DNA of 53,219 nucleotides from a virus (IMGVR_UViG_3300021591_000002:1-53219), one strand, 5' to 3'. Numbered from the stretch's first letter, positions 8,007 to 24,851 are shown. Notes: generated from the letters alone by a model not told the origin. Numbers and translations are program-made.

Positions 8007-8057
8007 TCTCGCACCCCCGGTTTCCCAAGTAAAGAATACCCCAAGATGCCCCGCTTG

Positions 8058-9304: not shown

Positions 9305-9316
9305 TATATCAGCCTC

Positions 9317-9592: not shown

Positions 9593-9792
9593 TGCATCAT
9601 CCTCCAGATCACGTAGGCAAGTCCCGTGCCCCAAAAGCACGCGAAGATGAAGAACGCTATCGCCGCGGCGATATCCCTCTCGCGATCCCACGCGTCTTGC
9701 ACGGCGCTTATGACGTTGACCACGCTGCCAAGCAGGTGGAAAAGCGTCATCGAGCCCAGAAAGATTGCAGCCAGGATGTACACGACTGTCAT
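9589..9792 (-). CDS. 2-TM membrane protein
   Basis: Two hydrophobic helices; AAGGAG RBS; ATGA coupling. Confidence 0.65.
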   Translation of the reverse strand: MTVVYILAAIFLGSMTLFHLLGSVVNVISAVQDAWDRERDIAAAIAFFIFACFWGTGLAYVIWRMMQ

Positions 9793-9805
9793 TGCGCATC
9801 TCCTT

Positions 9806-10264: not shown

Positions 10265-10265
10265 G

Positions 10266-10652: not shown

Positions 10653-10682
10653 TGCTTTTGCTCCTTACGCATCGCTCACACC

Positions 10683-11084
10683 CTACCACTCTGTATGGAC
10701 TGTAACGTCCCAGCCCCATTTCTTCAGCCACGATTGCACATAGGCGCACAAGTTGTGGCAGCTTGGCGCCGCCTCCTCGATTATCACGTCAAAGCGTTGT
10801 GGCGGCGCCTTATCTTCACTCCCGACTGGTTCCAGGGCATAGGCGCCAAGCGTGCCCCAGTTTATCGGCTCGCTTCTAAACGCCTCTGCAATGCGCTTGT
10901 CACCTTTGATCCTCTTTTTGTCGAGCGCATATACAGTGTCTTCTTCCACCTTATCGTACAAGCTTAGCAACACCCAGTTAGCTAAGCTCTCGACGCATTT
11001 GTAATACGCCCACGGCACGTCGTGGTACAACGGGTGGGACTCAATCTCCGCACGCGTCATCAGAAAGGCAGTGTCAACGAGCAT
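10683..11084 (-). CDS. hypothetical protein
   Basis: AGGAG RBS; overlaps the end of the DUF5131 gene. Confidence 0.65.
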   Translation of the reverse strand: MLVDTAFLMTRAEIESHPLYHDVPWAYYKCVESLANWVLLSLYDKVEEDTVYALDKKRIKGDKRIAEAFRSEPINWGTLGAYALEPVGSEDKAPPQRFDVIIEEAAPSCHNLCAYVQSWLKKWGWDVTVHTEW

Positions 11085-11874
11085 TGTGCTCACTCCTATC
11101 CCAAGGGGTTTCCTGGATACGGAGGCCATCTGGGAAGTCCGCAGCGCATTCTGTTACCATGTATGGGTTTTTGCCTTGCCACTCACGGTCGGGGTCGTAC
11201 ATCGGCAACTGCTTGACCCATACAGGAATGCCCAAATCGCGGCAGTCCATCACAACACGGCGCGTCCACCATGTCACGTCCCACTCGTTATCCCCAATAG
11301 ACCTTCCCCACGATTCCTTCGCGCGTGGCCCACTCTGGCAGCCAACGACCACCCAGTCGGGCTTGCCCAAGCCATCGAATGCTGTATATAGCTCGACGAA
11401 AGAAACATCGCCAAGTATTGGCTCAAGCGATATCCACTTATGCTTTGCGTCTATATGCGGTAGGCACTTGAGCGCATACCACAAGTTCGCTTTATCGGTG
11501 GCCGATACGCCAAACCACAAGTTGGGCGGGAACTCAATGCCCTCAAGCGCCAGGGGGCGTTTAGTAAGTGTTAGGAACGTGTGCTGAGAGTGTGCCGCGA
11601 CCTTCCGAAGCATGCGCTTTATATCACCACGCCCAGCGAATGCCCAGTCACCCATGTAATTCAATGCTATAACTTTCGATTTGCGCGGTAACGGCCTAGC
11701 GAATACATCCTCGTGGAACGTCGGCGCAAACGGTTTGCCTTTTGGGTATCCGTAGCGCCCGCGCAAGCGGTAGGCCATGCGCCGCGCCCAGCAAAACTCC
11801 CAGCAGGGCAATCCTCTTACGCAGCCCGTAAACCAGTTCAGGCCCATGTCGCAGTACTCGGCCGGCTTACTCAT
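11074..11874 (-). CDS. DUF5131 (phage Gp37/Gp68, radical-SAM-like) protein
   Basis: N.FTGC.....C...CWA, LTLTKRP, NLWFGVS, WISLEP.LG, DWVVVG..SG, P.WVKQ. Confidence 0.88.
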   Translation of the reverse strand: MSKPAEYCDMGLNWFTGCVRGLPCWEFCWARRMAYRLRGRYGYPKGKPFAPTFHEDVFARPLPRKSKVIALNYMGDWAFAGRGDIKRMLRKVAAHSQHTFLTLTKRPLALEGIEFPPNLWFGVSATDKANLWYALKCLPHIDAKHKWISLEPILGDVSFVELYTAFDGLGKPDWVVVGCQSGPRAKESWGRSIGDNEWDVTWWTRRVVMDCRDLGIPVWVKQLPMYDPDREWQGKNPYMVTECAADFPDGLRIQETPWDRSEHNAR

Positions 11875-12155
11875 TGCCTACGCCCTCCGCCCACCATGGG
11901 AAACAGGATTTCTTTGGCCCTTTCGCAATGGGTCATTATCTGGCCCACAGCCACGATGCAGCGATGTGGCCAGCCTCTTTCACGCCTTTCTATCTCTTCT
12001 GTGGCCCACTTGGCGCACTCTGATATTACATTGAAAAGGTCCTGCAGGCCGCAATCCCCTCCGGTCCCCAAAGCACGATCTTCCTTCCAGGGATAGTTGC
12101 TCTTCTGCACTTTCGACATCTCCGCAATGTTCTCAAGGACGTGGTACTTTTTCAT
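11871..12155 (-). CDS. hypothetical protein
   Basis: GGAGG RBS; ATGA coupling. Confidence 0.6.
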   Translation of the reverse strand: MKKYHVLENIAEMSKVQKSNYPWKEDRALGTGGDCGLQDLFNVISECAKWATEEIERRERGWPHRCIVAVGQIMTHCERAKEILFPMVGGGRRQ

Positions 12156-12370
12156 GACTCCTCCCTTTCTGCTTGCTCTATTGCGCCATAGATGAACACC
12201 TTCCATGCAGCTTGCTCGCGCGTCCTTGCCGTGCCGGAGCGCAAGAAGCGCTTGCTGTCCTCGATGTGCCAATGCCACTCGCCTCGCGGCGGGTCCAAGC
12301 ACCAGATGCTGGCGCGAAGACCACCCGCGAGCCTCAACCTGTGCACCACGTAATCAGCCGGATCGCCCAT
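12152..12370 (-). CDS. hypothetical early protein (single WxW module)
   Basis: WHWHIE...GTARTREQAA. Confidence 0.65.
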   Translation of the reverse strand: MGDPADYVVHRLRLAGGLRASIWCLDPPRGEWHWHIEDSKRFLRSGTARTREQAAWKVFIYGAIEQAEREES

Positions 12371-12379
12371 CGCATTCTC

Positions 12380-12790
12380 CTACCACGCGATTGTGAAGCA
12401 CTTTTTCCCCTTATGCTTCATGAGAAAAGCCAGCACCTCCGTCGGGTCATTGACCTTGTAGCCCGTCTGGTTGGGTTTGGCCAGCGCATCTCGCACCTTT
12501 CCGATAAGCTCGTCGTCAATAACGGGGAAATCCTCTCCAATGGCCTCGCTGACCGCCATGACCGGCGCGGGAATATAGGTGTCATTGTCATCGAGGAGCG
12601 CTGCCTTCAGCCACGATACCTCGCCCACCCACACGGCCGGTGTTTTGGCAAGCTTGCGGTCGATCACATCCCACTCTTCATCCGTGCACGGCGTTCCGAA
12701 GTACTTGCTGCCAATAGTGTTCCCCTCGAAGCGCTTTATGTCATCCTCAGTCACGCCTTCGAGTATGTGAATGTACAGGTCTGCGGCCAT
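12380..12790 (-). CDS. hypothetical protein
   Basis: 136-aa ORF with GGAG RBS. Confidence 0.75.
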   Translation of the reverse strand: MAADLYIHILEGVTEDDIKRFEGNTIGSKYFGTPCTDEEWDVIDRKLAKTPAVWVGEVSWLKAALLDDNDTYIPAPVMAVSEAIGEDFPVIDDELIGKVRDALAKPNQTGYKVNDPTEVLAFLMKHKGKKCFTIAW

Positions 12791-12791
12791 G

Positions 12792-12905
12792 TTAACTCCC
12801 TTTCGATTCTAGTGCTCGTGCTGTCATCCGCCGCACGGCGACCCATAGCGGGGCACCGAAGACGGCGAGCAGGACGGCTAGGTAAAACATGGCCTCACTC
12901 ATCAT
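12792..12905 (-). CDS. small single-TM peptide (37 aa)
   Basis: AAGGAG RBS; MMSEAMFYLAVLLAVFGAPLWVAVRRMTARALESKGS*. Confidence 0.55.
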   Translation of the reverse strand: MMSEAMFYLAVLLAVFGAPLWVAVRRMTARALESKGS

Positions 12906-13101
12906 GCGTCTCCTTATCTGCGCCAATGGCTTCTCGTGCGGGCGCCATTGGCTGAACCTCGACGCGATCAAACAGGGTATTTAGATAGTCGAAAGCGAGG
13001 TGCCTCCGGTGGAGGGGCGCCGCGCATGCAAAATTCAATGTGCTCAGCACCTGCTCTTTGAATCTCTCCCATGTATCGTGGGAAACTACTACTGCTCGCA
13101 T
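12895..13101 (-). CDS. hypothetical protein
   Basis: AGGAGG RBS. Confidence 0.6.
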   Translation of the reverse strand: MRAVVVSHDTWERFKEQVLSTLNFACAAPLHRRHLAFDYLNTLFDRVEVQPMAPAREAIGADKETHDE

Positions 13102-13112
13102 GCTTGGCCTCC

Positions 13113-13442
13113 TTATCTATCTCCATTGTTTCCCGACCCAGGCGTTGTAGGGCTCGTGCCCGCAGTCGGTGGAGCGGGTATGTCCGTGCTCATATCGAGG
13201 GCAAGGTCAAACGCCATAGCCATCAGCGCGGCTGCACAGGCGGCGCCTCGTATAGAACGCGCGGCATATGGCCCTAGAAAAGTGCCTGCCCCCCAGACCT
13301 CCCACGTGGGTTCGCCGCCACAGCGGAGCTTGCCATGGCGGACCTCCGCTACCATGCATCCATACCTGCGCCAGTAGCCACACGGCTTGCCATCCTCGGA
13401 GAGAATCGGTGTCCAGGCCGGTAACTCACTCATCGGTTTCAC
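13113..13442 (-). CDS. hypothetical protein
   Basis: 109-aa ORF in the operon. Confidence 0.55.
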   Translation of the reverse strand: MKPMSELPAWTPILSEDGKPCGYWRRYGCMVAEVRHGKLRCGGEPTWEVWGAGTFLGPYAARSIRGAACAAALMAMAFDLALDMSTDIPAPPTAGTSPTTPGSGNNGDR

Positions 13443-13665
13443 CCTTCAATGCCTTGTCCAACCGAGTGCGTAGCGCCTCAACCGCAACATCGGTTAGCAG
13501 GAGCTGCACCATGTCCTGATGGTCCTTTCGGAAGGCCGTCACGATGACGCTGTAGGCTCCGTCGCTCATCCGATGTGCACACACCGAAGGGGCTCGGACG
13601 TCAAGGTAGTTGAAGACGAAGGTCTCGCCGGCGATTGGGTAGTTGACCCAATGCTGATACCGCAT
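13426..13665 (-). CDS. hypothetical protein
   Basis: AAGGAG RBS; TAATG coupling. Confidence 0.6.
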   Translation of the reverse strand: MRYQHWVNYPIAGETFVFNYLDVRAPSVCAHRMSDGAYSVIVTAFRKDHQDMVQLLLTDVAVEALRTRLDKALKGETDE

Positions 13666-13916
13666 TATTTTGCTCCTTCTCCTTGCGTTAGCATGACGCA
13701 GCGCCTCTCGAATGCGTTTCGCAGGGCAAACTCGAAGATCGGGATGATGGCCTCCCATGCCCTGGCCTCCCCATAGCAACGAGTCTGTTGGCCTTTCTCG
13801 ACCAACCACACTCGCCAACAACTGGCTCCGTGACTACGAGGCTTATCTAGGACATGGTGATCAATCTGGAGCTCGACGCCCTGCCCAATGTATGCTCGCG
13901 CAATTGTCTCTGCCAT
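13665..13916 (-). CDS. hypothetical protein
   Basis: AGGAGG RBS. Confidence 0.6.
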   Translation of the reverse strand: MAETIARAYIGQGVELQIDHHVLDKPRSHGASCWRVWLVEKGQQTRCYGEARAWEAIIPIFEFALRNAFERRCVMLTQGEGAK

Positions 13917-13931
13917 CAGCGTGCTCCTCCT

Positions 13932-14156
13932 TCACTCGTCGTGTGTCTTCTCCTGCTGGGGCAACGGGGTGAATGCCCGTAGTGCGAACTCCAGGATGGC
14001 GCGCGCGAACACCACGCTATCGGCATCTCCGAAGAGGTGGACCGGCACCCCGCGCTCTATCAGACGCACCTTCCATCGATCTCGGTTGCTGACATAGACG
14101 ACCTGCACCTCTTTTGCCTCCCCTACAGGAACCCGTGCACAACAATGGCCAGTCAT
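13932..14156 (-). CDS. hypothetical protein
   Basis: AAGGAG RBS before MTGHCC. Confidence 0.55.
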   Translation of the reverse strand: MTGHCCARVPVGEAKEVQVVYVSNRDRWKVRLIERGVPVHLFGDADSVVFARAILEFALRAFTPLPQQEKTHDE

Positions 14157-14160
14157 CGGC

Positions 14161-14331
14161 TCACTCCTTCCCGTAAAGCTCCCGCCGCAGCCGCCAACAA
14201 GCATCCCGGAACAGGGCCGCGTAGCGGGCAGCCAGCGCCCGGCGGAATGGTGGCAGTCGCCGCAGCCGCAGCGGGTCGCGCTTGCGGGCCAGGTCGGCCA
14301 GCGCGCGAATCTCAAGGTCGCGGCGAGTCAT
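14161..14331 (-). CDS. small basic protein
   Basis: AGGAGG RBS before MTRRDLE. Confidence 0.55.
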   Translation of the reverse strand: MTRRDLEIRALADLARKRDPLRLRRLPPFRRALAARYAALFRDACWRLRRELYGKE

Positions 14332-14597
14332 GATTTCGCCTCCTTGCCAGTTGCGTGGGCAAGGGCCGCCGCCATGTCTGCGGCGCCATCTAGATAGGCT
14401 GCGCAATCGGCATAGCCGGCCGCACGTAGGCGCCTAGCCGCCACACGCAGCTTTCTGATCCTGTCGCAGCGCAGGCTGGCGATTTGCGAGTGGCGAAGCG
14501 CCTCTGCGGTTTGCGCCGCGTCGCGCAACTCCGCGGCCAAACGTTCGCCGCGCGCGGCGATCTCCTCTGCCCACACGTCCAGAATGCCAAAGCTCAT
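14328..14597 (-). CDS. hypothetical helical protein
   Basis: GGAGGT RBS; ATGA coupling. Confidence 0.6.
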   Translation of the reverse strand: MSFGILDVWAEEIAARGERLAAELRDAAQTAEALRHSQIASLRCDRIRKLRVAARRLRAAGYADCAAYLDGAADMAAALAHATGKEAKS

Positions 14598-14839
14598 CGC
14601 TTCACCTCCTTTTCCCGCTCCCGCATCCTTTGTCGCCTCCGAATGGCCGTCCACTGCGCATGCGATATCCGCGAGACGCCGGCCGAGGAGCCGCACAGGC
14701 AGTCGCTCACGAACCACCCGCACTTTGCGCACCGGTATTCCCACCAGGTGCAGTAAGGCGTGCTGCACCTCCCTCCAGCATAGTAGTGGCCATCATCTAC
14801 GTGCTTACCCCATGGGCAAGGCTCGGGGGCGGTCTTCAT
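14594..14839 (-). CDS. Cys-rich small protein
   Basis: Seven Cys including CAKC and CLC. Confidence 0.6.
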   Translation of the reverse strand: MKTAPEPCPWGKHVDDGHYYAGGRCSTPYCTWWEYRCAKCGWFVSDCLCGSSAGVSRISHAQWTAIRRRQRMREREKEVKR

Positions 14840-15090
14840 CTCCAGTTCCTTTCAACCCACGCGTCATATAGCTCATGCCCGCAGCCGGTTGAGTCGGGGT
14901 CGCCGACCGCCCAGCGGTCGTAGGACACGGTGAAGCACCAACCGCAGCTGGCACACTCATACTGGGCATCGTCCAGGTCGTAGTCCTGGAACTCGGCCTC
15001 CCCGTTACACTGTGGGCATGGCCACGTGTCGGGCGCCTCCGGGCCGTCCGGGGGCTCGATGTTGCGTTCAGGGAAAACGTCGGGGCGCAT
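14836..15090 (-). CDS. zinc-ribbon protein
   Basis: CPQC...CASC; AGGAG RBS. Confidence 0.65.
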   Translation of the reverse strand: MRPDVFPERNIEPPDGPEAPDTWPCPQCNGEAEFQDYDLDDAQYECASCGWCFTVSYDRWAVGDPDSTGCGHELYDAWVERNWR

Positions 15091-15314
15091 CACTGATCTC
15101 CTACAGGCACCGACAGGCCCGGTGCCACGTAGTGCACAGATGGTTGCTCGGCGATCCACTGCTCAACCTCCACCAGGCCGTGCTCGCCGACGGCGTTCGA
15201 TGCGATAGCGAGCGTCGCATAGTCATGCTCTCCCTCATCGGGGAGGGGCGGTTCGGGGACGATTTCCGTCCCGCGAACGCGGTACTCATCGGTCAGCTCC
15301 ACCTCGTACAACAT
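15090..15314 (-). CDS. acidic hypothetical protein
   Basis: AGGAG RBS before MLYEVEL. Confidence 0.6.
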   Translation of the reverse strand: MLYEVELTDEYRVRGTEIVPEPPLPDEGEHDYATLAIASNAVGEHGLVEVEQWIAEQPSVHYVAPGLSVPVGDQ

Positions 15315-15324
15315 CGTCAATCTC

Positions 15325-15579
15325 CTACCTGGCGCGTCCGTTGCGGATGACCAGCCCTTCGTACCCGCCTGCGCGGTAGGCAGCGCGGGCGCGCCGCAAC
15401 TCGGTAAGAATCCGGTCATGCCATTTGGCATGCGGGTTGTCTGGTGAAAATGCGACGAACTTGGTGTCGGGTGGGATGCCATCCCATTCGCAGGCGTGCC
15501 GCCAGGCTAGCCGTGCGGCATGGGCTAGCGAGGCGAGATAGCGCCTCCCCTGCTGGTTGATCTTTTCTTGCGTTGTCAT
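15325..15579 (-). CDS. hypothetical protein
   Basis: AGGAGGT RBS. Confidence 0.7.
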   Translation of the reverse strand: MTTQEKINQQGRRYLASLAHAARLAWRHACEWDGIPPDTKFVAFSPDNPHAKWHDRILTELRRARAAYRAGGYEGLVIRNGRAR

Positions 15580-15612
15580 CGCGGGACCTCCTTGCGCTGA
15601 TCGGCTAGTAGT

Positions 15613-15819
15613 TTAGCGCGTCGGTTCTGCCGCGACAAGGGCACGCAACGGGCGCACGCTGTGCGCGAACTCTCGCTCGTCGTCCAGCATGTTTGCTGGA
15701 ATGGCACTCGCCCGGTGGCGCTCCCTGACCCAGCCGAACACGCGCGACCAGTACGCGACCGTCTTGCCGTCGCGCACCGCCTTCAGGTGGTAAAATGGCG
15801 CGGCCACGATGTGACTCAT
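15613..15819 (-). CDS. hypothetical protein
   Basis: AGGAGG RBS; ATGA coupling. Confidence 0.6.
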   Translation of the reverse strand: MSHIVAAPFYHLKAVRDGKTVAYWSRVFGWVRERHRASAIPANMLDDEREFAHSVRPLRALVAAEPTR

Positions 15820-16061
15820 CTGTCCGCCTCCTTAACATACGCGTTGACGGAATTGAGAACGACCTGGAGTTTTCGCTCAAGCCAGTGGGCGAGCCGGATC
15901 ACACAGCGGCGGGTCTCAGCGTCACCGCTCGCGTCCATGTTGAGCGCCAACAGCTCCCTGTTCGCGCCCTGCACAATGCTAGCCAGTGTGCTAAGGCTGT
16001 CGGCCAGCTTGTTTGCCAGCTCCCCGGCCTTGAGTCGAGTAGTTGCTTCATTTTTCATCAC
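15816..16061 (-). CDS. hypothetical coiled-coil protein
   Basis: AGGAGGT RBS. Confidence 0.6.
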   Translation of the reverse strand: MMKNEATTRLKAGELANKLADSLSTLASIVQGANRELLALNMDASGDAETRRCVIRLAHWLERKLQVVLNSVNAYVKEADR

Positions 16062-16368
16062 GCACCTCCTGCTGTGTCATTTCATCATGAACGGCGCGCT
16101 CAAGCTCGCCCTTTCTCGCGCGGCGCCATCCGCCTCTTGGCCCGCCAACGTAGGCGCGCAGGCGTGGCAGTTTGCGTCGCAGGGTGAGCACGATGGCGGC
16201 GGCGCGGCCCGGGCTGCAATCCAGCACAACCGCGCCTCCGTCCAGCTTGCCTTTTTCCGCGTTCACCACGCTACGTATGCGCAGCGGCGAGAGAATCCAT
16301 GTGGCCGTCTGCCGCACCTTTGGGTGCGAAAGGTCCGAAACATTGATTGCGATCTGCGTTGCGCTCAT
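16048..16368 (-). CDS. hypothetical protein
   Basis: GGAGGT RBS; ATGA coupling. Confidence 0.65.
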   Translation of the reverse strand: MSATQIAINVSDLSHPKVRQTATWILSPLRIRSVVNAEKGKLDGGAVVLDCSPGRAAAIVLTLRRKLPRLRAYVGGPRGGWRRARKGELERAVHDEMTQQEVRDEK

Positions 16369-16787
16369 GTCGACACCTCCTCAATAAAGCGCAGCCCGTC
16401 GCACAGCACGGTTCCGTGCGGCGCACAACACTGCGCGAGTCCGGCCTTCTTCGCGTATTCCCGTGCCGAAGATAACTTGCCAGCGCGGATTAATCCAAGC
16501 CATTTATCATGCGCACCTGTGACCGCCCAGCGGAGACTGTATGTTGCCAGAACATGGGTAACGTCATGCACACTTTCAGTCTCGCACTTCCATATTTCAC
16601 ATGACGGTTTAAGACCATCAGCAAATTCTTGCGCTTGCGCCGCATCCGCAAAGGCAAACACGCCGTCCCATTTTTCACGCAACCATTCCCCGTCCACCAT
16701 ATATAGCAGTCCCAGCGGTGGCCGGACTACGGCGGATGACAATACACCTTCCCGCCCCGCGCGTAGGACCTTCCATACGTTTGTCAC
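16365..16787 (-). CDS. hypothetical protein
   Basis: GTG start after GGAGG; somewhat lower GC than its neighbours. Confidence 0.6.
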   Translation of the reverse strand: MTNVWKVLRAGREGVLSSAVVRPPLGLLYMVDGEWLREKWDGVFAFADAAQAQEFADGLKPSCEIWKCETESVHDVTHVLATYSLRWAVTGAHDKWLGLIRAGKLSSAREYAKKAGLAQCCAPHGTVLCDGLRFIEEVST

Positions 16788-17080
16788 GTTTCTTCCTCCT
16801 CTTCTTCGCCATAGAGAAGGCTTTCGCATAGCTCTTCCGCCTCCCCAGTGGACATTTCCAGCAGCCTAGTAAGCCAGTCTGTCAGTATTTCCACCTCGCG
16901 CCAGCCCATTCCGGGGTTCAGGCCATGCGGCCTTATTCCGGCGATCTTGGCATCCTCGTCGTGCCCTGTGAGGTCGGCCAGAATAGCCGTGAAAACCCTG
17001 TCCAGCGACCATTGGTCCCTATTGTAGTTGAGCGCCTCCATGCGCACGTCTTCTGCCAGCTCTTTTACCTTATCGCTCAT
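16784..17080 (-). CDS. acidic hypothetical protein
   Basis: AAGGGG RBS; Glu-run C-terminus. Confidence 0.65.
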   Translation of the reverse strand: MSDKVKELAEDVRMEALNYNRDQWSLDRVFTAILADLTGHDEDAKIAGIRPHGLNPGMGWREVEILTDWLTRLLEMSTGEAEELCESLLYGEEEEEET

Positions 17081-17093
17081 CTTCGTTCCCCTT

Positions 17094-17351
17094 TCACGGC
17101 TTCTCCCCAAGAGTGCCAAGCGCCTTTTGTAGGATGTTCAACACGCACTCGCTGAGATTGTCGGACACGCTCGCTATCTCCCCAGCGGCGTGGCTAACCA
17201 CGGCGTCATGAAGAACGCGCGCAGCACGCGTGAGTCGCAGGGACGTTTCGTTTAGTGTGTCGCACGCAGATGATGTGATGTCAATGACATGGTGGAGCGC
17301 GTCCATGATGGACTCCCACTCGGATTGCTCTAGGATTACTGCGCGTTGCAC
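17094..17351 (-). CDS. hypothetical helical protein
   Basis: GGAGG RBS; GTG start. Confidence 0.6.
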   Translation of the reverse strand: MQRAVILEQSEWESIMDALHHVIDITSSACDTLNETSLRLTRAARVLHDAVVSHAAGEIASVSDNLSECVLNILQKALGTLGEKP

Positions 17352-17353
17352 CT

Positions 17354-17590
17354 TCAGTCCTCCCGTTTAGCAAGCGCTTCTTGAAGCGCACGCAAAAGGT
17401 CGCCTGCCTGTTTGCGCGTCATGGTAATTGACCGCGTGCGCATGTCGGGCATGTCCCACATCACGGTGTATAAGTCTTCCTTCGGTGGTGTGTTGCCATG
17501 TATATACACCGTGATGCGTGGCTTTTCATGTTGGAAGTGCCACGCCATGCGCATGACGTGCTTGCTGTCTAGCTCGATAATCGTCATCAT
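17354..17590 (-). CDS. hypothetical protein
   Basis: AGGAG RBS before MMTIIEL. Confidence 0.6.
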   Translation of the reverse strand: MMTIIELDSKHVMRMAWHFQHEKPRITVYIHGNTPPKEDLYTVMWDMPDMRTRSITMTRKQAGDLLRALQEALAKRED

Positions 17591-17673
17591 GGTCTCCTCA
17601 TCCTGCGCAGCACGAATGCTGCGGCCGCCATGAACGCCAGAAACATGCACGCATTGAATGCGAATTCGCTCAT
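17587..17673 (-). CDS. small single-TM peptide (28 aa)
   Basis: AGGAGG RBS; MSEFAFNACMFLAFMAAAAFVLRRMRRP*; ATGA-coupled at both ends. Confidence 0.55.
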   Translation of the reverse strand: MSEFAFNACMFLAFMAAAAFVLRRMRRP

Positions 17674-18014
17674 TGCGCCTCCTTTCCGAAGGAGATGAAC
17701 CCCGGCACGCCGATGACGCGCCCCTGTTCGTCGCGCACGGCGCGCGCCGTGTCCGGCGCCAAGACATCGGCGCGCGCCGCTTGCTGCGCGACAACGAGCG
17801 AAACTATATAGAACGTTCCCTCTTTAGGTTCTGGCAGTCCTTCCACCTTACCTGGCGCCAATCTGCGTACGGGCACGTCCCCAGGTAACATAGCATGGCC
17901 TGCCGGCTCGAACTCGATCCGCGCTATGTCTCCTGTCGGCGGTATGTTCACCACGCGTTCTCCACCATCCAGCACCAATGTAACCCTATGTGGCGTCAGG
18001 TTGATATACGTCAC
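17670..18014 (-). CDS. conserved phage protein of unknown function (INLTPH...YIVS...VRD..G.VIG family)
   Basis: Motifs INLTPH, PP.G..AR, LPEP.EG..YIVS, D...P, VRD..GRVIG, familiar from phage genomes. Confidence 0.8.
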   Translation of the reverse strand: MTYINLTPHRVTLVLDGGERVVNIPPTGDIARIEFEPAGHAMLPGDVPVRRLAPGKVEGLPEPKEGTFYIVSLVVAQQAARADVLAPDTARAVRDEQGRVIGVPGFISFGKEAQ

Positions 18015-18018
18015 GGCC

Positions 18019-18522
18019 TTACTCCTCCTCTTCGGGCTCCACTTCCGGCACTGTGACAACTGGTCCCATGCTATAGGCAGACGCCGGCAGGCCGTCCGGC
18101 ACATCGTCAATATATCCCAGCGCCTGTCCCCATCTTGCAGCCGCCGCCATGTCCGTGCCGAACTCGGCGCGGGCCACGCGGTCTGCGACCTTATCCAGCT
18201 CCTTGATGTATGGGTCTCCGTCCGCGTCCAGCATCGCCATGACGGGCATGCACACATCGGCGCCCCCGTGGAATCTAGCCATGCGCCAGATGTACCACGC
18301 GCGCCGATGCGCCACCTTTACCTCCCACGGCGCATCTTCTGGCGCATACCGTGGACGCGACCTGCGCAGCCGGCCGGTCCGGCTATTGGTGATCAGCTTT
18401 GCGATCAGCTCCGCATGCGCGCGTGGCGTCGGGAAGTACCCGTGGCCATCGCACCACGGGCACTCGCGCCATCGCCCGCGCCCATTCCCGCCACACTTGC
18501 GACATGGTCTTTTCTCATCCAT
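18019..18522 (-). CDS. protein with DnaJ-type CxxCxGxG zinc finger
   Basis: CRKCGGNG...CPWCDGHG at the N-terminus. Confidence 0.75.
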   Translation of the reverse strand: MDEKRPCRKCGGNGRGRWRECPWCDGHGYFPTPRAHAELIAKLITNSRTGRLRRSRPRYAPEDAPWEVKVAHRRAWYIWRMARFHGGADVCMPVMAMLDADGDPYIKELDKVADRVARAEFGTDMAAAARWGQALGYIDDVPDGLPASAYSMGPVVTVPEVEPEEEE

Positions 18523-18721
18523 CGCTTTCTCCTTGAAGTGCTGCCACTACCCTGTCGGCTTCTTCGAGATATCCTTGCGCGTAGTCCAGAAAGCTCCGCG
18601 CATTGAGAAGGAATTCCGGATGGGGTTCCCCCTCCCATGCGCGCAGCTCATCGACTGCGTTAATGATGCTTCTCATGGCATCGAGCGTGTGGGTCCAGAA
18701 GCATTCACGTGGGTTGCTCAT
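18515..18721 (-). CDS. hypothetical protein
   Basis: AGGAGG RBS before MSNPRE; an upstream in-frame start is possible. Confidence 0.55.
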   Translation of the reverse strand: MSNPRECFWTHTLDAMRSIINAVDELRAWEGEPHPEFLLNARSFLDYAQGYLEEADRVVAALQGESDG

Positions 18722-18821
18722 TTCTGCGTCCTCCTGTCGTGCTGGTCTCCGCGTCCCGCGCCGCGCCGGGCGTGCCACAATCATCCACACCTGCGCCATG
18801 CCCATGCCTTTCTCCTTTGTG

Positions 18822-19085
18822 TTACTGCTTGTGGCCAGCTGTGAAGTCCGAAGGCGCAACACGCCACACCACCACTTTGGCAAACTCGCGGCCAGTTATC
18901 TCGCGCACTGCGTTCAGCGCGCGGGCTTGGTCCCGTTTGATGCGCTCGCGAAGCCCCGCAATGGTCGTTTCGCGCTCGCCAAGATAAGCGAGCGTTTCGC
19001 AGTGAAGCTGGTCAACGGTGTCCGCTACCTCCACAATGGCCCGGCCGCGGCCGCCGTCAACGATGCCAATATGGTACGTACGCAT
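18822..19085 (-). CDS. hypothetical protein
   Basis: AGGAG RBS before MRTYH. Confidence 0.6.
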   Translation of the reverse strand: MRTYHIGIVDGGRGRAIVEVADTVDQLHCETLAYLGERETTIAGLRERIKRDQARALNAVREITGREFAKVVVWRVAPSDFTAGHKQ

Positions 19086-19287
19086 GCGTTCTCTCCTGCT
19101 GGTCCGGCCCGCGCCACATTGATGCGCAGCAGTACGGGCACACGTAGGGATCATCCTGTGGGATTTCTTCAACCCACGGCAGCCTCCCCTCGGTGAGCAA
19201 GCGCTGACGCTCGATGCGGTCATTGTCTTTTGTCCATTGGCCGCCGCACTCGGCGCAAGTGCGCGGCCAACCGTGTGGTTGCGTCAT
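19057..19287 (-). CDS. small zinc-binding protein
   Basis: CAEC...CPYC; GAGGGG RBS. Confidence 0.6.
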   Translation of the reverse strand: MTQPHGWPRTCAECGGQWTKDNDRIERQRLLTEGRLPWVEEIPQDDPYVCPYCCASMWRGPDQQERTHAYVPYWHR

Positions 19288-19288
19288 A

Positions 19289-19717
19289 CTAGTTCCCCTC
19301 ACCTTTAAGCTTCCGCACGCCGCGCGCGCAGACGGTGTGCGTCCAACCAGCCGCACGCGCATGCGCGTACCGCCCCGCCGGGAGCGGTTGCATGTCAAGC
19401 ATGCACAACTTCTCTCGCGGGACAAGCAGCAGGTCCTGCGCGTTTTCGACCAGCTCAAGGCCGCATTCCAACGCGAGCAGAACTTGCTCCCCGTCCTGCT
19501 CGACGACGGCGGCGAAGTACCGAGGTGGCCATCCCCCGCGCCCGCGGAGGGAGGCAACTTCGGCGCGCCTGTCCTCGTATCGTGCGCGTCCAATACCCTC
19601 GTGGAGGGCGTCGAGCGTGGTGTCGTCCGCGCTATCAAGCGCGCGCTCATACGCCTCTCGGGCCTCGCGCTCGCGCGGTCCGCAGGCGGCGCGTACTTTC
19701 TCCAACCTCTCGCGCAT
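19289..19717 (-). CDS. hypothetical protein
   Basis: AAGGAG RBS; 142 aa. Confidence 0.65.
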   Translation of the reverse strand: MRERLEKVRAACGPREREAREAYERALDSADDTTLDALHEGIGRARYEDRRAEVASLRGRGGWPPRYFAAVVEQDGEQVLLALECGLELVENAQDLLLVPREKLCMLDMQPLPAGRYAHARAAGWTHTVCARGVRKLKGEGN

Positions 19718-19727
19718 CTCGTTCTCC

Positions 19728-20105
19728 TTACTTCTGCGCCATGAGTCGCAACACCTCGCCGCGCTCTACAGGTACGACCTGCTGGTCCGGCCGGCGCATG
19801 GCCAGCAGTAAGTCCAATTGCTCTTCGATTCCATGCGCCACTTGGTCGAGGTGGTGGACTATCTCCTTGGTGGACTCTAGCGCCACCTGCAGCGCCTGGA
19901 CGGCTTCCAAGCGCCTTTCCCAGGCGCGCTCGGCGCCTAGGCGCTCGCACGCCCCGGCCAGGGCTTCCAGCGCCTTCCGCGCCTCGGCGCACCGGCGCTC
20001 CAGCGCGCCTTCGCAGCGCAGCGCCCGCTGCGCTTGCGCGGCCATATACTCGGCCACAGCGCTCCAGCGCGCCGCCGGAATGTACCGCATTCTCACCGTT
20101 GCCAT
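19728..20105 (-). CDS. coiled-coil protein
   Basis: GAGGAG RBS; Ala/Glu/Arg heptads. Confidence 0.65.
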   Translation of the reverse strand: MATVRMRYIPAARWSAVAEYMAAQAQRALRCEGALERRCAEARKALEALAGACERLGAERAWERRLEAVQALQVALESTKEIVHHLDQVAHGIEEQLDLLLAMRRPDQQVVPVERGEVLRLMAQK

Positions 20106-20115
20106 GTCTTTCTCC

Positions 20116-20388
20116 TCACCTGACGCGACACACCACAGCGCGGGTGCACAGGCCGTCAAGTGCGCCAAAGTCCAGATAGGCGCGCAACTCAACGACGTGC
20201 GTTGCGCCGCGCTCGCGGGCGAACTCATGCCGCCCGCCACGGTCCCAGCCGGCCGCCGCGTGCTCCGGCACGCGGTTCCACGGCCCGCTGGGGGATTGCG
20301 CCACCCGCCACGGCCAGCGCGTGCGGTCAACGAAGACCGCCTTAGCGCCAGCCGGCAGCCGAGCGGCCGCGTGCTGCAGGACGTCCAT
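20116..20388 (-). CDS. hypothetical protein
   Basis: AGGAGG RBS before MDVLQH. Confidence 0.6.
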   Translation of the reverse strand: MDVLQHAAARLPAGAKAVFVDRTRWPWRVAQSPSGPWNRVPEHAAAGWDRGGRHEFARERGATHVVELRAYLDFGALDGLCTRAVVCRVR

Positions 20389-20398
20389 GTTCGGCCTC

Positions 20399-20674
20399 CT
20401 AAACGGCAAACGCCTCGGCGCGCTGGGCCGCGTCAATCGATACGGCCTCGACAGCGCACTGGAGCGCAATCCAGCGCTCCGCCGCGTACAGTGCGGCGCC
20501 GCGCGTCCTGAACCCACCCGATTGGTGCGCCGGCTTGCCGGCGAGCGGGCCTCGCCACACCGCGAAGGCCCACCTGTGACGCGGGCGCTTATGCACGCAC
20601 AGCGTCCACGTCCGCGCGTACGGCGCGTCCGAAACGACGCCGTACAGATACCCAATAGCGTGCTTGTGCAACAT
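20399..20674 (-). CDS. hypothetical early protein (WxF module)
   Basis: AGGAG RBS; RWAFAVW...SGGFRTRGAAL. Confidence 0.6.
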   Translation of the reverse strand: MLHKHAIGYLYGVVSDAPYARTWTLCVHKRPRHRWAFAVWRGPLAGKPAHQSGGFRTRGAALYAAERWIALQCAVEAVSIDAAQRAEAFAV

Positions 20675-20714
20675 CACGTTTCTCCTACCAAAGACCAACG
20701 AAGCGCACGCTATA

Positions 20715-20975
20715 TGTTATCCGGCGTACGCCGGCTATCGTCATGCAAGCGGGCACGCGGCTACGCACGTACGTACACACATTGTATGTACGAGCGTGCA
20801 ACGTACTACACCATACACGCTATGCGCATGCATTACTATAGCGCGGGGTACTAGTACGTACGCTCATGCATCTCATGCATAAAGAGCGCGTACATACCAT
20901 GTAAGCGTTAGGTATGCACGTGTATATGGGTAATCCCATGTACGTGCATGAGCGTACATGGGGTGTACGTATGGG
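20715..20975. repeat. non-coding purine/pyrimidine-alternating, palindrome-rich island
   Basis: Hand count: 12 GTAC and 8 CATG. Perfect palindromes CCGGCGTACGCCGG (20721-20734) and GTACTAGTAC (20848-20857); stem-loop 20914-20949. Confidence 0.75.
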
Positions 20976-21013
20976 TAGGGCAGGGCCGGCGGGCGGCGGT
21001 TAGGGTGTTTCTC

Positions 21014-21313
21014 CTAGTAGCCCAGGGCGTACAATGCTCTGAGCGCGGTGGTCGCGGCCTTGAAGTGGCGCGTGTTGGGTTCGCCATCGATTAGTCGGGA
21101 GATGATGGCGCTGGTGTGGGCGGAATTGCACACGCCGGTTTTGAGGTCGCGTGCGGCCTTCAGGATATGGTCTCCGATATGGGGAGGGAGATCGAGGGCC
21201 ACTTTGCGAAGGTGGTATGCGCCCTCGAGTTGGAGCATTCTGATGATGTGCATCGCGCCTGTTTCGACGTAGTCGTGCGCTGTTACTGCGTCCATGGTGT
21301 TGAATGCTGACAT
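21014..21313 (-). CDS. hypothetical protein
   Basis: AGGAGGT RBS; 99 aa. Confidence 0.75.
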   Translation of the reverse strand: MSAFNTMDAVTAHDYVETGAMHIIRMLQLEGAYHLRKVALDLPPHIGDHILKAARDLKTGVCNSAHTSAIISRLIDGEPNTRHFKAATTALRALYALGY

Positions 21314-21439
21314 GGCGGACCTCCTTTCGTCATGCCGCCCGCCGGATTGTCAATGAGCGTGCCCTGCCAAGGCGCCTTAGCACGGCGCACGTGCCAAGAC
21401 GTGTTGGCAGGTGGCAGACCCGGGCCTAGGTTGCGGGAA

Positions 21440-21871
21440 TTAGACGTCCAGTTCGTCGATCACCACGTCTTCGACCTCGGTTGTCTCCTTTTTCTCCTTC
21501 GGGGTGTACGGCACGCTGTGCCGCGCCACGGGATTGAAGTCAATGCCGAGCGCCTTTGCCGTGTCCAAGCGCTTCTCAAGCGCTTCGGTGGTGTAGCCGG
21601 TAGCCGGCCGCAATTCTCCACGGCGGCGCGGATTGTAGCACAGATTTTCCGCGGCCTGGAGTTCGGCGGCGGCCACCGCCAGAATCGACCACACCTGCTC
21701 AGCGTTGCGGGCAGGTGTAGCGACCTTGACCGCGGCGGAAGCCAGTTTCCGGGCGCGTTCAAGACGCTCGATGGCGTCTTCAACCGCCGATTCAATGACG
21801 GCGGCCACGGCGCCGATGCGTCGAACGCCACCATTACCCAGCGCAGTGCCGGTGTTTTTCTTGCTGGCCAT
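21440..21871 (-). CDS. hypothetical protein, first gene of the leftward operon
   Basis: AAGGAG RBS; directly downstream of a consensus promoter; acidic tail. Confidence 0.75.
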   Translation of the reverse strand: MASKKNTGTALGNGGVRRIGAVAAVIESAVEDAIERLERARKLASAAVKVATPARNAEQVWSILAVAAAELQAAENLCYNPRRRGELRPATGYTTEALEKRLDTAKALGIDFNPVARHSVPYTPKEKKETTEVEDVVIDELDV

Positions 21872-21938
21872 GACGATTCTCCTTTGTCATGGCCCGGGCC
21901 TGCTCGCTTGCCAAAGAACGACCTGTCAAGGCATCCTT

Positions 21939-21967
21939 AGCATACCATAGACGGCGGGCGTTGTCAA
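21939..21967 (-). promoter_or_regulatory. sigma70-type leftward (early) promoter
   Basis: Minus strand TTGACA-17 bp-TATGCT with TG extended -10, ~70 bp upstream of ATG 21871. Confidence 0.8.
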
Positions 21968-22317
21968 GCCGACTTGCCACGGCGGGCAGCCTGGCGAAAT
22001 GCGGCGGCAGGCGGCGGCGGAAAAATCCCCCCGCGATTCGCGGCGGGGGAATAATCCCCCCCGTTTGCGCGGAGAAAATTCCGTGGCTCGTTGCGGTGTC
22101 GTGCTTTGCAATAGCCCCTAGAAGCCGCGAGGATTGCGTGTGGCGGCATCCGGGGTGGTGCAAAGTATAAGAAGTCGCGTTACGTGCGCGATAATCGTTA
22201 TCAATAAGCGTAAGCGTGGCGTGTTATTGGGCTTACGTTCTTACTGGGAAGCGTTATCATTTGCGTGTTTGAGCAAATAGGGCGTGTGGGGCACGAGAAT
22301 CGCGTGTGGTGCAAAGT

Positions 22318-22353
22318 TGGTTCATATGAACCAGTTAGTGCCATTTTGGCACT
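22318..22353. promoter_or_regulatory. two adjacent palindromic operator-like sites
   Basis: TGGTTCATATGAACCA (perfect 16-mer, 22318-22333) and AGTGCCA-TTT-TGGCACT (22337-22353), between the divergent promoters. Confidence 0.5.
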
Positions 22354-22429
22354 CGGTGTTTGGGTGAGGGTTGGCGCGGCTGGGGAGGGGCGAAATCGGC
22401 TGGTTACGGCGGGAAGGAGGGGAAAGGGC

Positions 22430-22740
22430 GTGTACGTATATAAGGGGTACGTCTATGTACGTACATGGAAGTATATAATTAGGTACGTACATGTACGGGG
22501 TACTAAGTTATATAATAATATATAGCTAGGTACTCTGTGTACATGGGTATATGAGTGGGGTACCGGCTTATAAGGGTAGGGTATAAGCTTATAGGAGGGG
22601 TAGGTACACGTACGTCCAGACTACCTATATAAAAGGTAGTCTGGACGTGTACGTACGTACTGGTACCCTTAAAGTAACGTACAGTGGGTACCGTACGTAC
22701 AGTAAGGGTACATAGATAGGGGTACAGGTAGAGTACCGTG
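22430..22740. repeat. GTAC-dense, TA-rich non-coding island with a 15-bp inverted repeat
   Basis: 24 GTAC in ~305 bp by hand count; ACGTCCAGACTACCT-atataaa-AGGTAGTCTGGACGT at 22612-22648. Confidence 0.85.
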
Positions 22741-22778
22741 GAGCTCATGAGGGGTAACCCTACATGACACAGATGGGG

Positions 22779-22807
22779 TTGACTTGCGGGGTGAGTGGTG
22801 GTAGTAT
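22779..22807 (+). promoter_or_regulatory. sigma70-type rightward promoter
   Basis: TTGACT-17 bp-TAGTAT with TG extended -10; AGGAGG RBS at ~22817 and ATG at 22829. Confidence 0.65.
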
Positions 22808-22828
22808 CTTATAGGAAGGAGGCTTGGT

Positions 22829-23326
22829 ATGACAGGGCCTGAGCGTGAGTTTGCTCTGTTTTGCGCTAGGGTGCGCGATAAGGAAGGGCGTCTGGCTAAG
22901 TGGAGGGAACTCGGGCTGGATAATGGGGAGAGCGATGGGAAGGAGGCGCAGCGCATAGCTGCCTTTCTTCGGAGGGATGACGTGGTGAATTTGCTGGAAG
23001 CAGAGGAAGACCGTGCGGACATAGAGGCGCGCGCCACGATAATGGAGGAGCGCGAAGAGCGGGCGCGGCTCTATAAGAAGCGGCTCCAGCTGTGGCAAGA
23101 GGTGCTGGACTCCGCGCTCGAAGCGCTGGGTAAGGTGCGGCAGCAAATACGCGAGGGTGATAACATTGGCACCATACAGGCGTACTCCAAGCTGGTGGAT
23201 GTGCTTCGCAAGCTTGTGCCGATGGATATCGAAGAGGAGGACGTGCTGGTTACGCAGCGTGAGCGTGAAGCAATTGCCCGCTCTATCGGCTTCAAGATAC
23301 CCGACGAGTTGATACCGCGAGCATGA
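22829..23326 (+). CDS. putative terminase small subunit
   Basis: Helical 165-aa protein immediately upstream of terL; call is positional. Confidence 0.6.
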   Translation: MTGPEREFALFCARVRDKEGRLAKWRELGLDNGESDGKEAQRIAAFLRRDDVVNLLEAEEDRADIEARATIMEEREERARLYKKRLQLWQEVLDSALEALGKVRQQIREGDNIGTIQAYSKLVDVLRKLVPMDIEEEDVLVTQREREAIARSIGFKIPDELIPRA

Positions 23327-23327
23327 C

Positions 23328-24851
23328 ATGCGCAAGCTAGACCCGGCGATAGTCCGGCGAGATGTACGGGAGTGCCCGATAGCGTGGTTCTCCGTGAAGC
23401 GCCGCCCAGGCCAGCGGGCGTTTTTTTATGATAAGAGCGTCGTCTCGGTTGTTATCGGGGGGCGGCGTGCCGGCAAAACCACATGCGTGGTAGGAAGAAC
23501 GGTGGCGGCAGCTACGGGTATAGAGCCGCTTGAACTTCCCGGCTGCACGGAAGGCTTCCCAAAGCCACCGCTGGCCATCAGGCACTTCTGCGTGGATATC
23601 AACCGCACGTGGGAGCAGGTGATCCTGCCGAAGTATCTGGCACTTATCCCGCCCTCGATGCTGGACAAACGCAAGGGTGCAAAGCGCGACGGGTACGAGC
23701 GCCACAAGAACACGCTGTGGCTGCGCAACGGGACGTACATACAGCCGATGACGTACGGCATGACGCTTGATAAGAGCGAGTCCGCTGTGCTGGATATCGT
23801 GAATTTTGACGAGTTTCCGCGCCAGGAGCTTTTCCACAGCCAGCTTGCACGCGTGCTGACAACTGGCGGGCGCATATTTATCGCCGGGTGTCTGGACCAG
23901 CGCAGCATGCCGTGGCCCATAGACTGGGTGCACGAAGAACTCCTTGACACCGATAATCCGCACGTGAGTGTGCACTACTTCAGCACCGAGGAAAACATCA
24001 AGGCACTCGCAGAAGAGGCGGGCGAAGAGGTCGGCGCCCGCATCAAGAAAAACCTTGAGGCCATACGCGCCTTCCTGCCCGAAGAAGAACAAAGCGTGGT
24101 GCTTGGCGGCACGCCGTCGTGGCAATTCGGGCGCGTGTACAAGGAATTCACGCCAGAAAAACATGTGCTCAAGGGCTTCCAGCCGCACCACTTCCTAGCC
24201 ATGATGCGTAAGGGCTATGGTGAGATATACGCGGGGTGGGATCACGGAATCAACCACCCAACGTGCGTGGCGTATGGTTTTCTCACAACGCATGACGTTC
24301 CAAACTTGCCTTTTAAGCGCGGCGATGTTATAGTGTTTGACGAGTACTGGCGCCAAGGGCTGAAGGCGCCGCAAATGGTGGGTGAAATCCTGCGGCTCCA
24401 CAAGATGTACATCCCGAAGCGCTACTTCTGCTGCCGCAGGATGTTCATCAGCGGTGAACTCGGGCCGTCCGTGGCGCGTTACTACATGGATAACGGGATC
24501 GCACCGCTGATTTCCGCAAGCCACGGGCGAATGGACGCCATAGACCCTGGAGTCCAGCTTGTGTCGGCGCTCATACACGAAGGCGAAGAGTGGCCGAGGT
24601 TGCGTGTGTGCGAGAATTGCACGCACGTGATCCGCGCGCTCAAGTCGTGGTCTTTCAAGCCGTCGTCGTCCGATACCAATACCGGGGCAAAATATAGCGA
24701 CAAGTACAAGGATGCAGCCGATGCCGTGCGGTATCTGGTTACCGGCTGCGCCAGGCGAAATGAAATCGCAAGGCCGGTCATGTGGCCGCAAGTCGATCAT
24801 CCCGGCCTGCCCATATCGGCACTAAGCATACTTAGCGGGGTTGGCTACTGA
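23328..24851 (+). CDS. terL: terminase large subunit
   Basis: Walker A GGRRAGKT, Walker B VNFDE, nuclease motifs GWDHG and DAADAVRY. Confidence 0.92.
   Translation: MRKLDPAIVRRDVRECPIAWFSVKRRPGQRAFFYDKSVVSVVIGGRRAGKTTCVVGRTVAAATGIEPLELPGCTEGFPKPPLAIRHFCVDINRTWEQVILPKYLALIPPSMLDKRKGAKRDGYERHKNTLWLRNGTYIQPMTYGMTLDKSESAVLDIVNFDEFPRQELFHSQLARVLTTGGRIFIAGCLDQRSMPWPIDWVHEELLDTDNPHVSVHYFSTEENIKALAEEAGEEVGARIKKNLEAIRAFLPEEEQSVVLGGTPSWQFGRVYKEFTPEKHVLKGFQPHHFLAMMRKGYGEIYAGWDHGINHPTCVAYGFLTTHDVPNLPFKRGDVIVFDEYWRQGLKAPQMVGEILRLHKMYIPKRYFCCRRMFISGELGPSVARYYMDNGIAPLISASHGRMDAIDPGVQLVSALIHEGEEWPRLRVCENCTHVIRALKSWSFKPSSSDTNTGAKYSDKYKDAADAVRYLVTGCARRNEIARPVMWPQVDHPGLPISALSILSGVGY

Follow-up and report, generated by a model that had tools for sequence, protein, structure and literature searches.

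GTAC-rich islands in a 53-kb phage contig as candidate cis-acting signals, one of them tentatively of origin type

Introduction

Arrays of short DNA words address replication origins, packaging sites and DNA motors, and the known cases consist of longer or phased repeats or of GATC words read by way of Dam methylation. Dam methylation is read at GATC clusters in E. coli oriC, where SeqA takes part, in the pac site of phage P1 and in the region upstream of the Mu mom gene. Terminase recognition arrays include the R sites of lambda cosB and the pacL and pacR boxes of SPP1. The origins of SaPIs, in the sections of the source that deal with them, are described as 6-12 penta- or hexanucleotide iterons placed directly downstream of rep around an A/T-rich centre (PMC9371898). 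The clt loci of Streptomyces plasmids, in the part of the source that presents them, are 8-bp repeats read by the FtsK-like translocase TraB (PMC4447253). The word GTAC itself appears as a natural target of adenine methylation and restriction in the account given of the PabI/HpyAXII restriction-modification systems (PMC4615327).

In this study one virus contig was analysed for clusters of GTAC. The window, i.e. the whole stretch of DNA that was analysed, is the entire contig of 53,219 bases, taken as a single sequence (IMGVR_UViG_3300021591_000002:1-53219). A sequence-only reading of this DNA had singled out a GTAC-saturated island in front of the terminase genes as a candidate methylation-gated packaging or origin signal. 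No description of GTAC clusters in phage control regions was found in the full-text literature searched, a coverage that has subscription journals outside it, and a paper on the halovirus HF1 names GTAC merely within a list of motifs.

Organisation of the virus contig

The genes of the contig form two arms. The leftward genes, from 64 to about 21870, encode an SSB, an ERF recombinase, a PD-(D/E)XK/Cas4-like exonuclease, two D12 adenine methyltransferases and a DnaB-type helicase. The rightward genes, from 22829 onward, encode in this order a 165-aa ORF, the large terminase TerL, and then an SU10-type portal and virion proteins. The DnaB-type replicative helicase (6287-7588, minus strand) is the sole recognised replication protein. 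TerL (23328-24851, plus strand) was identified by its match to phrog_2 (E 5.9e-8); it matches 12 phage records at identities of at most 29%, and 11 of the 12 are annotated as terminase at the match. The 165-aa ORF (22829-23326, plus strand) has no family match and is a putative terS by position only. No tRNA genes were found in the contig, the search against Rfam gave a single chance hairpin match (26.6 bits against a cut-off of 100), and the ORF at 7581-8006 had no usable Atlas match.

The ORF that begins at 47508 on the plus strand is open at its 3' end. Joined head to tail, the contig would close this ORF 39 bases past the first base of the record, giving a K/E/A-rich product of 1916-1917 aa that ends just ahead of the stop of the first minus-strand gene (64). 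Since the ORF closes across the two ends, the assembly is probably circular or permuted. Hairpin promoters of the N4 type were considered for this phage and rejected, as no phage RNA polymerase was found and the 1916-1917-aa product matches nothing in PHROG, Pfam or PDB and lacks a DxDxD motif.

Several other features of the contig were recorded. For the last gene of the DNA-metabolism arm (64-1194, minus strand) the ESM Atlas gave a resemblance to viral glycosyltransferase clusters of family 9 (score 0.97), which is no more than a lead, and a DUF5131 protein is encoded farther up the same arm (11074-11874, minus strand); taken with the two methyltransferases, these genes may point to modification of the DNA in addition to methylation. 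On the minus strand, 21939-21967 holds a sigma-70-like promoter that points leftward (TTGACA-17-TATGCT with a TG extension). The words TGCCAAG/CTTGGCA are repeated at 21363-21411, include a 22-nt imperfect inverted repeat and have an operator-like look. Two 29-nt direct repeats (GCGGCGGCGGAAAAATCCCCCC...) lie within 22011-22068 and 22128-22317, a region that also carries repeated CGTGTGG words with small hairpins (GTGCCATTTTGGCAC), and both features are kept in the related loci L001 and L002. Alternating purine-pyrimidine runs of at least 10 nt number 106 in the contig, where a rough estimate for random sequence gives about 52.

Distribution of GTAC in the genome

Analysis of the contig revealed 212 GTAC words, compared with 130 +/- 9.7 in 100 shuffled sequences. 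This excess is local: outside three islands, here named A, B and C, 155 words were observed and 161 expected (O/E 0.96), and the 300-bp windows with at least five GTAC are confined to 3001-3750, 20501-21150 and 22201-22950. Island A (3136-3613) contains 18 GTAC (1.94 expected), island B (20618-21032) contains 15 (1.67 expected) and island C (22432-22736) contains 24, where 1.23 are expected in 311 bp from the genome-wide frequency (Poisson P ~7e-23). In a Markov-1 control of 200 genomes the densest 305-bp window held 4.5 GTAC on average and seven at most. The octamer GTACGTAC occurs ten times in the genome and nine of these copies are inside the three islands. Outside the islands the most depleted 4-bp palindrome is GATC (O/E 0.66).

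The GC content of all three islands is below that of the genome (~0.59). Islands B and C consist mostly of alternating purine-pyrimidine runs (GTAC, ACGT, CATG, TGCA, TATA), and the islands are rich in flexible pyrimidine-purine steps. Comparison of single-strand folding with shuffled sequences gave z=-7.2 for island C and z=-5.3 for island B. The spacing of GTAC showed no period above a random-position null in any of the three islands.

The sequence-only reading had counted 24 GTAC in about 305 bp, with about one expected by chance, and had described the island as TA-rich, G-skewed and nearly free of GCG and CGC. The counts given above for island C reproduce the first statement, and its composition (GC 0.428; 90 G against 43 C; no GCG and no CGC) agrees with the second. 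Its picture of one island holds for the cluster at 22432-22736 and had to be widened by the two further GTAC islands, A and B.

Structure of island C

Island C has a GC content of 0.43 and a G-rich plus strand. About 12 copies each of GCG and CGC are expected and none is present, while TATA occurs 14 times against 0.7 expected. A hand tally of the bases adjoining its 24 GTAC gave G 10, C 8, T 5 and A 1 before the word, and G 9, A 8, C 4 and T 3 after it; no conservation was found in these flanks.

The perfect 15-bp inverted repeat that had been claimed at 22612-22648 is present, its two arms (22612-22626 and 22634-22648) matching exactly around a 7-nt A/T loop. The repeat is bounded by GTAC at 22610 and 22649, and its arms can be extended to 27 nt at 81%. 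An A/T-rich core at 22504-22529 (four G/C in 26 nt) has GTAC sub-clusters on either side and folds as a 9-bp A/T hairpin when single-stranded; it is a candidate unwinding element. A 21-bp unit (TATAAG..GGGTA) occurs in 2.4 copies at 22548-22597 on the plus strand and is part of a set of one-directional RGGGTAY words, which lie at 22444, 22497, 22557, 22578, 22705 and 22719. Six of the 12 plus-strand copies of RGGGTAY in the whole contig are found in the region of island C.

Ahead of the packaging operon lies a sigma-70-like promoter (TTGACT-17-TAGTAT) at 22779-22807 on the plus strand. The promoter starts 42 bp past the last GTAC, in agreement with the earlier estimate that the island ends about 40 bp ahead of a rightward promoter, and the ATG of the putative terS is located 93 bp past the island.

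Islands A and B and selection for GTAC

Island A is located within the exonuclease gene (3070-4260, minus strand). The PHROG match of the exonuclease covers residues 170-370, and the island falls in the exonuclease domain. Its GC content is 0.505 against 0.59 for the genome, and the words CTCT, CCTC and GAGAGTAC are also abundant in it. By reading frame (0/1/2) its GTAC are distributed as 8, 3 and 7 sites. Analysis of codon choice revealed that valine is encoded by GTA in 11 of 16 codons of the island, compared with 102 of 787 in 26 other genes (P=6e-7). These GTA codons are followed by C in 8 of 11 cases (23 of 102 in the 26 other genes), and G stands before TAC in 7 of 9 cases (60 of 194 elsewhere). 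The GTAC of island A are thus built by unusual synonymous codons, so that selection acts on the bare tetramer as DNA. The bare GTAC tetramer at high density is the feature that is kept, even within a coding region. This synonymous recoding, together with the sites kept in the 94%-identical relative L003, supports the earlier suggestion of a selected cis-acting signal.

Island B is intergenic and belongs to the leftward arm; CATG, TGCA and ACGT are also enriched in it. A 14-bp perfect palindrome, CCGGCGTACGCCGG, is centred on GTAC at 20721-20734, about 25 bp upstream of an ORF start at 20698. The island also contains a 13-nt perfect inverted repeat bounded by GTAC, with arms at 20858-20870 and 20945-20957 that are 74 nt apart.

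Relatives and natural variants

A nucleotide search of 50,697 phage records gave no close relatives of the contig. The search of viral contigs with TerL found no relative and an alignment-based search one locus only, at 32% identity; the exonuclease had no relatives in viral contigs. In a set of 5.8 billion proteins only three relatives of TerL were found at E<=1e-10, and a metagenome scan yielded 10 loci. For the stretch 3000-22999, contigs that are 88-99% alike were found in three further runs (X2, X3 and X4) from three other studies, so the phage lineage is not limited to one data set.

Locus L003 has a TerL 99.5% identical over 209 residues and a TerS 100% identical to those of the contig, and its DNA is 94% identical across islands B and C, both of which are kept. 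The number of GTAC in L003 compared with the contig is 21 vs 24 for island C and 14 vs 12 for island B. Substitutions affect 3 of 136 GTAC-core positions and 32 of 512 others, a difference that is not significant (P=0.085), and several of them swap GTAC and TGCA by single transitions. L003 has a 39-nt gap that takes in the hairpin at 22612-22648. The same junction, at 22643, is where a contig of run X2 stops, and there too the hairpin is missing. The hairpin is therefore not required by every natural variant, if these two are viable.

A contig of run X2 skips 21004-21331 (326 bp), which removes a 99-aa gene (21014-21313), while L003 swaps 21433-21905 for a version 51% identical at the protein level and has an extra paralogue of the 99-aa gene. 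Where the minus-strand ORF 21440-21871 and the plus-strand ORF 21332-21940 overlap, conservation speaks for the former. The stretch between islands B and C (21004-21940) is mosaic among strains.

Loci L001 and L002 encode a TerL 75% identical and a TerS 70% identical to those of the contig, and neither has a 300-bp window with at least five GTAC. Upstream of terS they have an island with a GC content of 0.51, TATA at nine times expectation, two GCG and no CGC. This island includes a long hairpin of a sequence unlike that of the contig, and the words GGAGG (13 copies) and CTCTC replace GTAC. A TTGACA-17-TATTCT promoter is found in L002 at the place matching 22779-22807. All plus-strand copies of RGGGTAY fall in the island in both loci (4/4 in L002 and 4/4 in L001). 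Comparison of TerS with its counterparts in L001 and L002 showed evenly spread differences, with residues 1-30 nearly identical.

GTAC arrays in other viral contigs

Viral contigs were scanned for the pattern GTACGTAC, a gap of 10-40, GTACGTAC, a gap of 0-10 and GTAC. The scan identified 102 loci in about 70 sequence clusters, and 24 of the loci contain at least 12 GTAC per 300 bp. A control scan, with the pattern rebuilt on CATG, identified 69 loci, 24 of which contain at least 12 CATG per 300 bp. The control matches GTAC in the number of dense loci, so dense arrays of a 4-bp palindrome are not peculiar to GTAC; they are a general, though uncommon, feature of viral contigs.

In L011, L050, L059 and L108 a Toprim+AAA_25 primase-helicase gene is followed, only a few bases from its stop codon, by the start of an array of 10-13 GTAC. 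These arrays, 3' of the primase-helicase (L011, 3953-4050; L050, 1166-1317; L059, 1971-2100; L108, 3785-3890), each hold a GTAC-bounded hairpin with an A/T loop and are probably short-iteron origins. The primase-helicases of L011, L050 and L059 share 57-61% identity, and that of L108 is only 26-28% identical to them (ATPase part). L034, L097 and L105 are of the same lineage as L050, and the array of L034 is in addition upstream of small genes and the TerL gene. The inner stem of the L059 hairpin (ACTACC...GGTAGT) resembles the inner stem of the hairpin at 22612-22648.

The flanks of the arrays were surveyed with one locus per lineage (33 lineages with an island, or 33 of the 102 loci), same-cluster duplicates and loci without a run of at least eight sites being left out, and 110 of the 111 flanking ORFs were scanned against Pfam. 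The commonest families were replication-related, namely AAA_25 (5), Toprim_3 (4) and AAA_24 (2), counts that lack a baseline, come from contigs picked by their GTAC arrays and leave most of the 110 ORFs without a family. DnaG zinc ribbon, DnaB_C, Viral_Rep, Mob_Pre and RNase H were represented by one ORF each; among terminase families, two TerL domains appeared once each and Terminase_4 once. No protein is common to the contig analysed here and the flanks of the 102 GTAC loci, bar one weak DnaB match.

Two further records with many GTAC were observed. In L062, a high-GC viral record of 50,448 bases, 34 and 16 GTAC occur at 448-897 and 1657-1854, mostly as CGTACGTACG. These islands are situated at and beyond the 3' end of a 760-aa ORF that is FtsK/TraB-like by eye only. 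L038 has genes related to those of L062 and 24 GTAC.

Origin-type reading of island C

Island C is one of three cis-acting islands in which dense, bare GTAC is the selected feature, and our analysis suggests, with a probability of roughly 0.35, that it is a loading region of the replication-origin type, built from very short words. Its many GTAC words flank the A/T-rich candidate unwinding core and the GTAC-bounded hairpin; a putative protein would load there, and unwinding would start at the same island. A single putative reader would be common to the three islands, with islands A and B acting as secondary origins or control loci of that reader. A phage methyltransferase acting on GTAC may modulate the reader, a possibility to which none of the tests described below lends support, and the separate, conserved one-directional RGGGTAY array in the same intergenic region may serve the conserved TerS.

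This reading is favoured because the words lie on both sides of an A/T core and hairpins, because island C sits where the leftward replication/recombination arm and the rightward packaging/structural arm diverge, because no other iteron-like array was found beside the DnaB helicase gene, and because the same design recurs beside primase-helicases in other contigs. The confinement of GTAC density to three places, with 9/10 of the GTACGTAC octamers inside them, points in the same direction. So does the comparison with L001 and L002, where the corresponding position is still occupied by an island low in GC and GCG, rich in TATA and carrying a hairpin, and made of other words. The codon choice in island A, the strong single-strand folding of islands B and C and the replication-related families that are commonest beside GTAC arrays elsewhere were counted on the same side.

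Other findings argue against an origin. No initiator or primase was recognised among the ORFs scanned in the contig, hmmsearch found in it no homologue of the primase-helicase C-terminal domain (best E 0.61), and some 15 kb separate the DnaB gene from island C; since many ORFs have no family, an unrecognised initiator may nevertheless be encoded. Unlike classical iterons, the GTAC words are aperiodic and their flanks are not conserved. There are three islands rather than one, the hairpin is dispensable in the variants, and the excess conservation of GTAC cores reaches only P=0.085. When compared with iteron origins in general, the contig has the repeated short word and the A/T-rich element flanked by repeats, and it has neither regular spacing with conserved flanks nor an adjacent or identifiable initiator. 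The search for DnaA boxes, with up to two mismatches, gave 99 matches against 86 expected and no cluster near the islands. The GC skew turns at 21-22 kb, just where the genes change strand, and this turn thus provides no independent evidence for an origin.

Alternative explanations

A packaging signal (pac or cos), in which the small terminase binds island C and the large terminase cuts in or near it, is an unlikely explanation. The promoter and the putative terS-TerL operon do follow directly on island C, but two more GTAC islands are found 2 and 19 kb off, one of them inside a gene, and the hairpin is dispensable in natural variants. The GTAC array of L034 upstream of small genes and the TerL gene is in keeping with packaging, yet only one TerL and one small-terminase ORF were found among the 110 ORFs that flank GTAC arrays elsewhere. 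The N-terminus of TerS is conserved, and the one-directional RGGGTAY array is common to the relatives (6/12 copies in the contig, 4/4 in L002 and 4/4 in L001), whereas L001 and L002, with TerL at 75% identity and TerS conserved, are without GTAC in the matching region. A conserved TerS should read a conserved sequence, so the absence of GTAC in L001 and L002 makes this word a poor candidate for the TerS site. Judged from these sequence comparisons, recognition of GTAC by TerS is disfavoured, and RGGGTAY is a fair candidate for the TerS recognition word.

The combined pac or origin signal of the sequence-only reading can accordingly be divided. Its origin half gains from the arrays 3' of primase-helicases in other contigs. 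Its pac half loses ground: the reading had named a lack of GTAC enrichment upstream of terS in related phages among its refuting conditions, and L001 and L002 show this lack. Islands A and B are, moreover, distant from terS, and the nearest variant, L003, has no hairpin.

The second alternative is an epigenetic gate, in which a phage D12 enzyme would make GTm6AC and methylation of the islands would time origin firing, late transcription or packaging; this is improbable on the comparisons made below. The two D12-class adenine methyltransferase genes that had been pointed out in this phage were both located on the minus strand, enzyme 1 at 4152-5090 and enzyme 2, a paralogue 43% identical to it, at 5087-6022. 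Both genes are immediately upstream of the gene that holds island A. A bare tetramer that is dense, unphased, free of conserved flanks and present even in coding sequence is what a methylation-read cluster would be expected to look like. The rest of the genome shows no avoidance of GTAC (O/E 0.96), and GTAC-specific adenine methyltransferases exist, as the account of PabI/HpyAXII indicates (PMC4615327).

Other findings count against such a gate. Both D12 enzymes score below the cut-off of the Dam family, among solved structures they match only DpnM, weakly and at its N-terminus, and for the 120 homologues listed no source naming a specificity was found. A 59,697-base contig is reported in the methyltransferase cluster. 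Analysis of 80 viral loci (1.3 Mb) that encode homologues of enzyme 1 (35-42% identical) revealed none with at least 10 GTAC per 300 bp, compared with 1 of 69 control loci; two of the 80 reach eight. Conversely, among 10 of the 102 records with GTAC arrays, picked for their long contigs, a D12 gene was found in one, and in none of the three rated 100% complete. The D12 family and GTAC clusters thus do not travel together in the other viral genomes tested, and neither of these two tests gave support to methylation gating. As the homologues are only 35-42% identical and may differ in specificity, the gating idea is unsupported by these data and not refuted.

In its full form this alternative would make the three islands and one D12 enzyme a Dam/SeqA-like timer that uses another word, with the density of GTm6AC marking origin or control regions, a proposal that we regard as doubtful. 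The hemimethylated state left by a passing fork would act as the gate on re-initiation, on the consensus-like late promoter or on packaging, and the phage would have altered the codons in part of its exonuclease gene so that the gene bears one such mark.

A third alternative, also with little likelihood, is that the islands are regulatory arrays, GTAC/TATA-rich stretches coated by a phage or host DNA-binding or nucleoid-type protein that silences or times the flanking operons, including the late promoter. Islands B and C each have a gene start closely downstream, but island A is inside a gene and not at the start of an operon. The promoter after island C is near consensus and so would probably need early repression. 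The 14-bp GTAC-centred palindrome ahead of the ORF that starts at 20698, and the flexible pyrimidine-purine steps and alternating purine-pyrimidine runs of the islands, also speak for this reading. However, no HTH or RHH regulator was recognised among the 45 ORFs scanned, and 24 sites in 305 bp are far beyond the needs of an operator.

Least probable is the absence of a dedicated function, with the islands as by-products, for example recombination junctions rich in palindromes or low-GC segments acquired from elsewhere: the islands are all lower in GC than the genome, the region between B and C is mosaic (the 326-bp skip at 21004 in X2; 21433-21905 replaced in L003) and GTAC and TGCA are swapped by single transitions between variants, but the codon-level bias to GTAC within the conserved exonuclease domain is strong, L003 keeps its net GTAC (21 vs 24 in C and 14 vs 12 in B), and the design of array plus hairpin recurs in unrelated contigs.

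Comparison with known systems

In this phage, which has two adenine methyltransferases, a bare 4-bp palindrome has been selected for density at the cost of codon choice. If a reader of GTAC were found, it would define either a new minimal-iteron origin or a second, independent case of methylation-timed phage control. A GTAC array with a GTAC-bounded hairpin beside primase-helicase genes could serve as a practical origin marker for uncultured phages.

With the Dam/GATC clusters the islands share a dense, adenine-containing 4-bp palindrome in a control region and D12 genes in the genome; the likeness in density of the target word (24 vs 1.23) holds only if GTAC is the methyltransferase target. 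Here the word is GTAC and not GATC, the density is higher (24 in 305 bp), and there are three islands, one of them coding. Relative to PabI/HpyAXII, as far as the source describes these systems, the present phage differs in showing no avoidance of GTAC. The likeness to lambda cosB and the SPP1 pac boxes consists of repeats and bendable DNA upstream of terS, with RGGGTAY conserved along with TerS; the GTAC words are not conserved with TerS, and the islands are not confined to the terS region.

The likeness to the short-iteron origins of self-loading primase-helicases of the SaPI type, in the form in which the source presents them, is the presence of many short words on both sides of an A/T-rich centre, and the GTAC arrays 3' of the primase-helicases in L011, L050, L059 and L108 match that layout (PMC9371898). 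Measured against the same description, the contig has no such helicase-initiator and island C is not beside a replication gene; island C also has more sites, which are aperiodic and without fixed orientation. The clt loci, in the portion of the source that describes them, are likewise arrays of short words that load a DNA motor, and the GTACGTAC arrays of L062 resemble their layout (PMC4447253). As described there, clt consists of direct repeats in a single orientation; GTAC by contrast is palindromic, and the contig has no FtsK-like gene. The GTAC islands resemble GATC clusters, SaPI iterons and clt repeats in kind, and they differ from these known short-word arrays in the word itself, in its density, in the absence of phasing and in their intrusion into a coding region.
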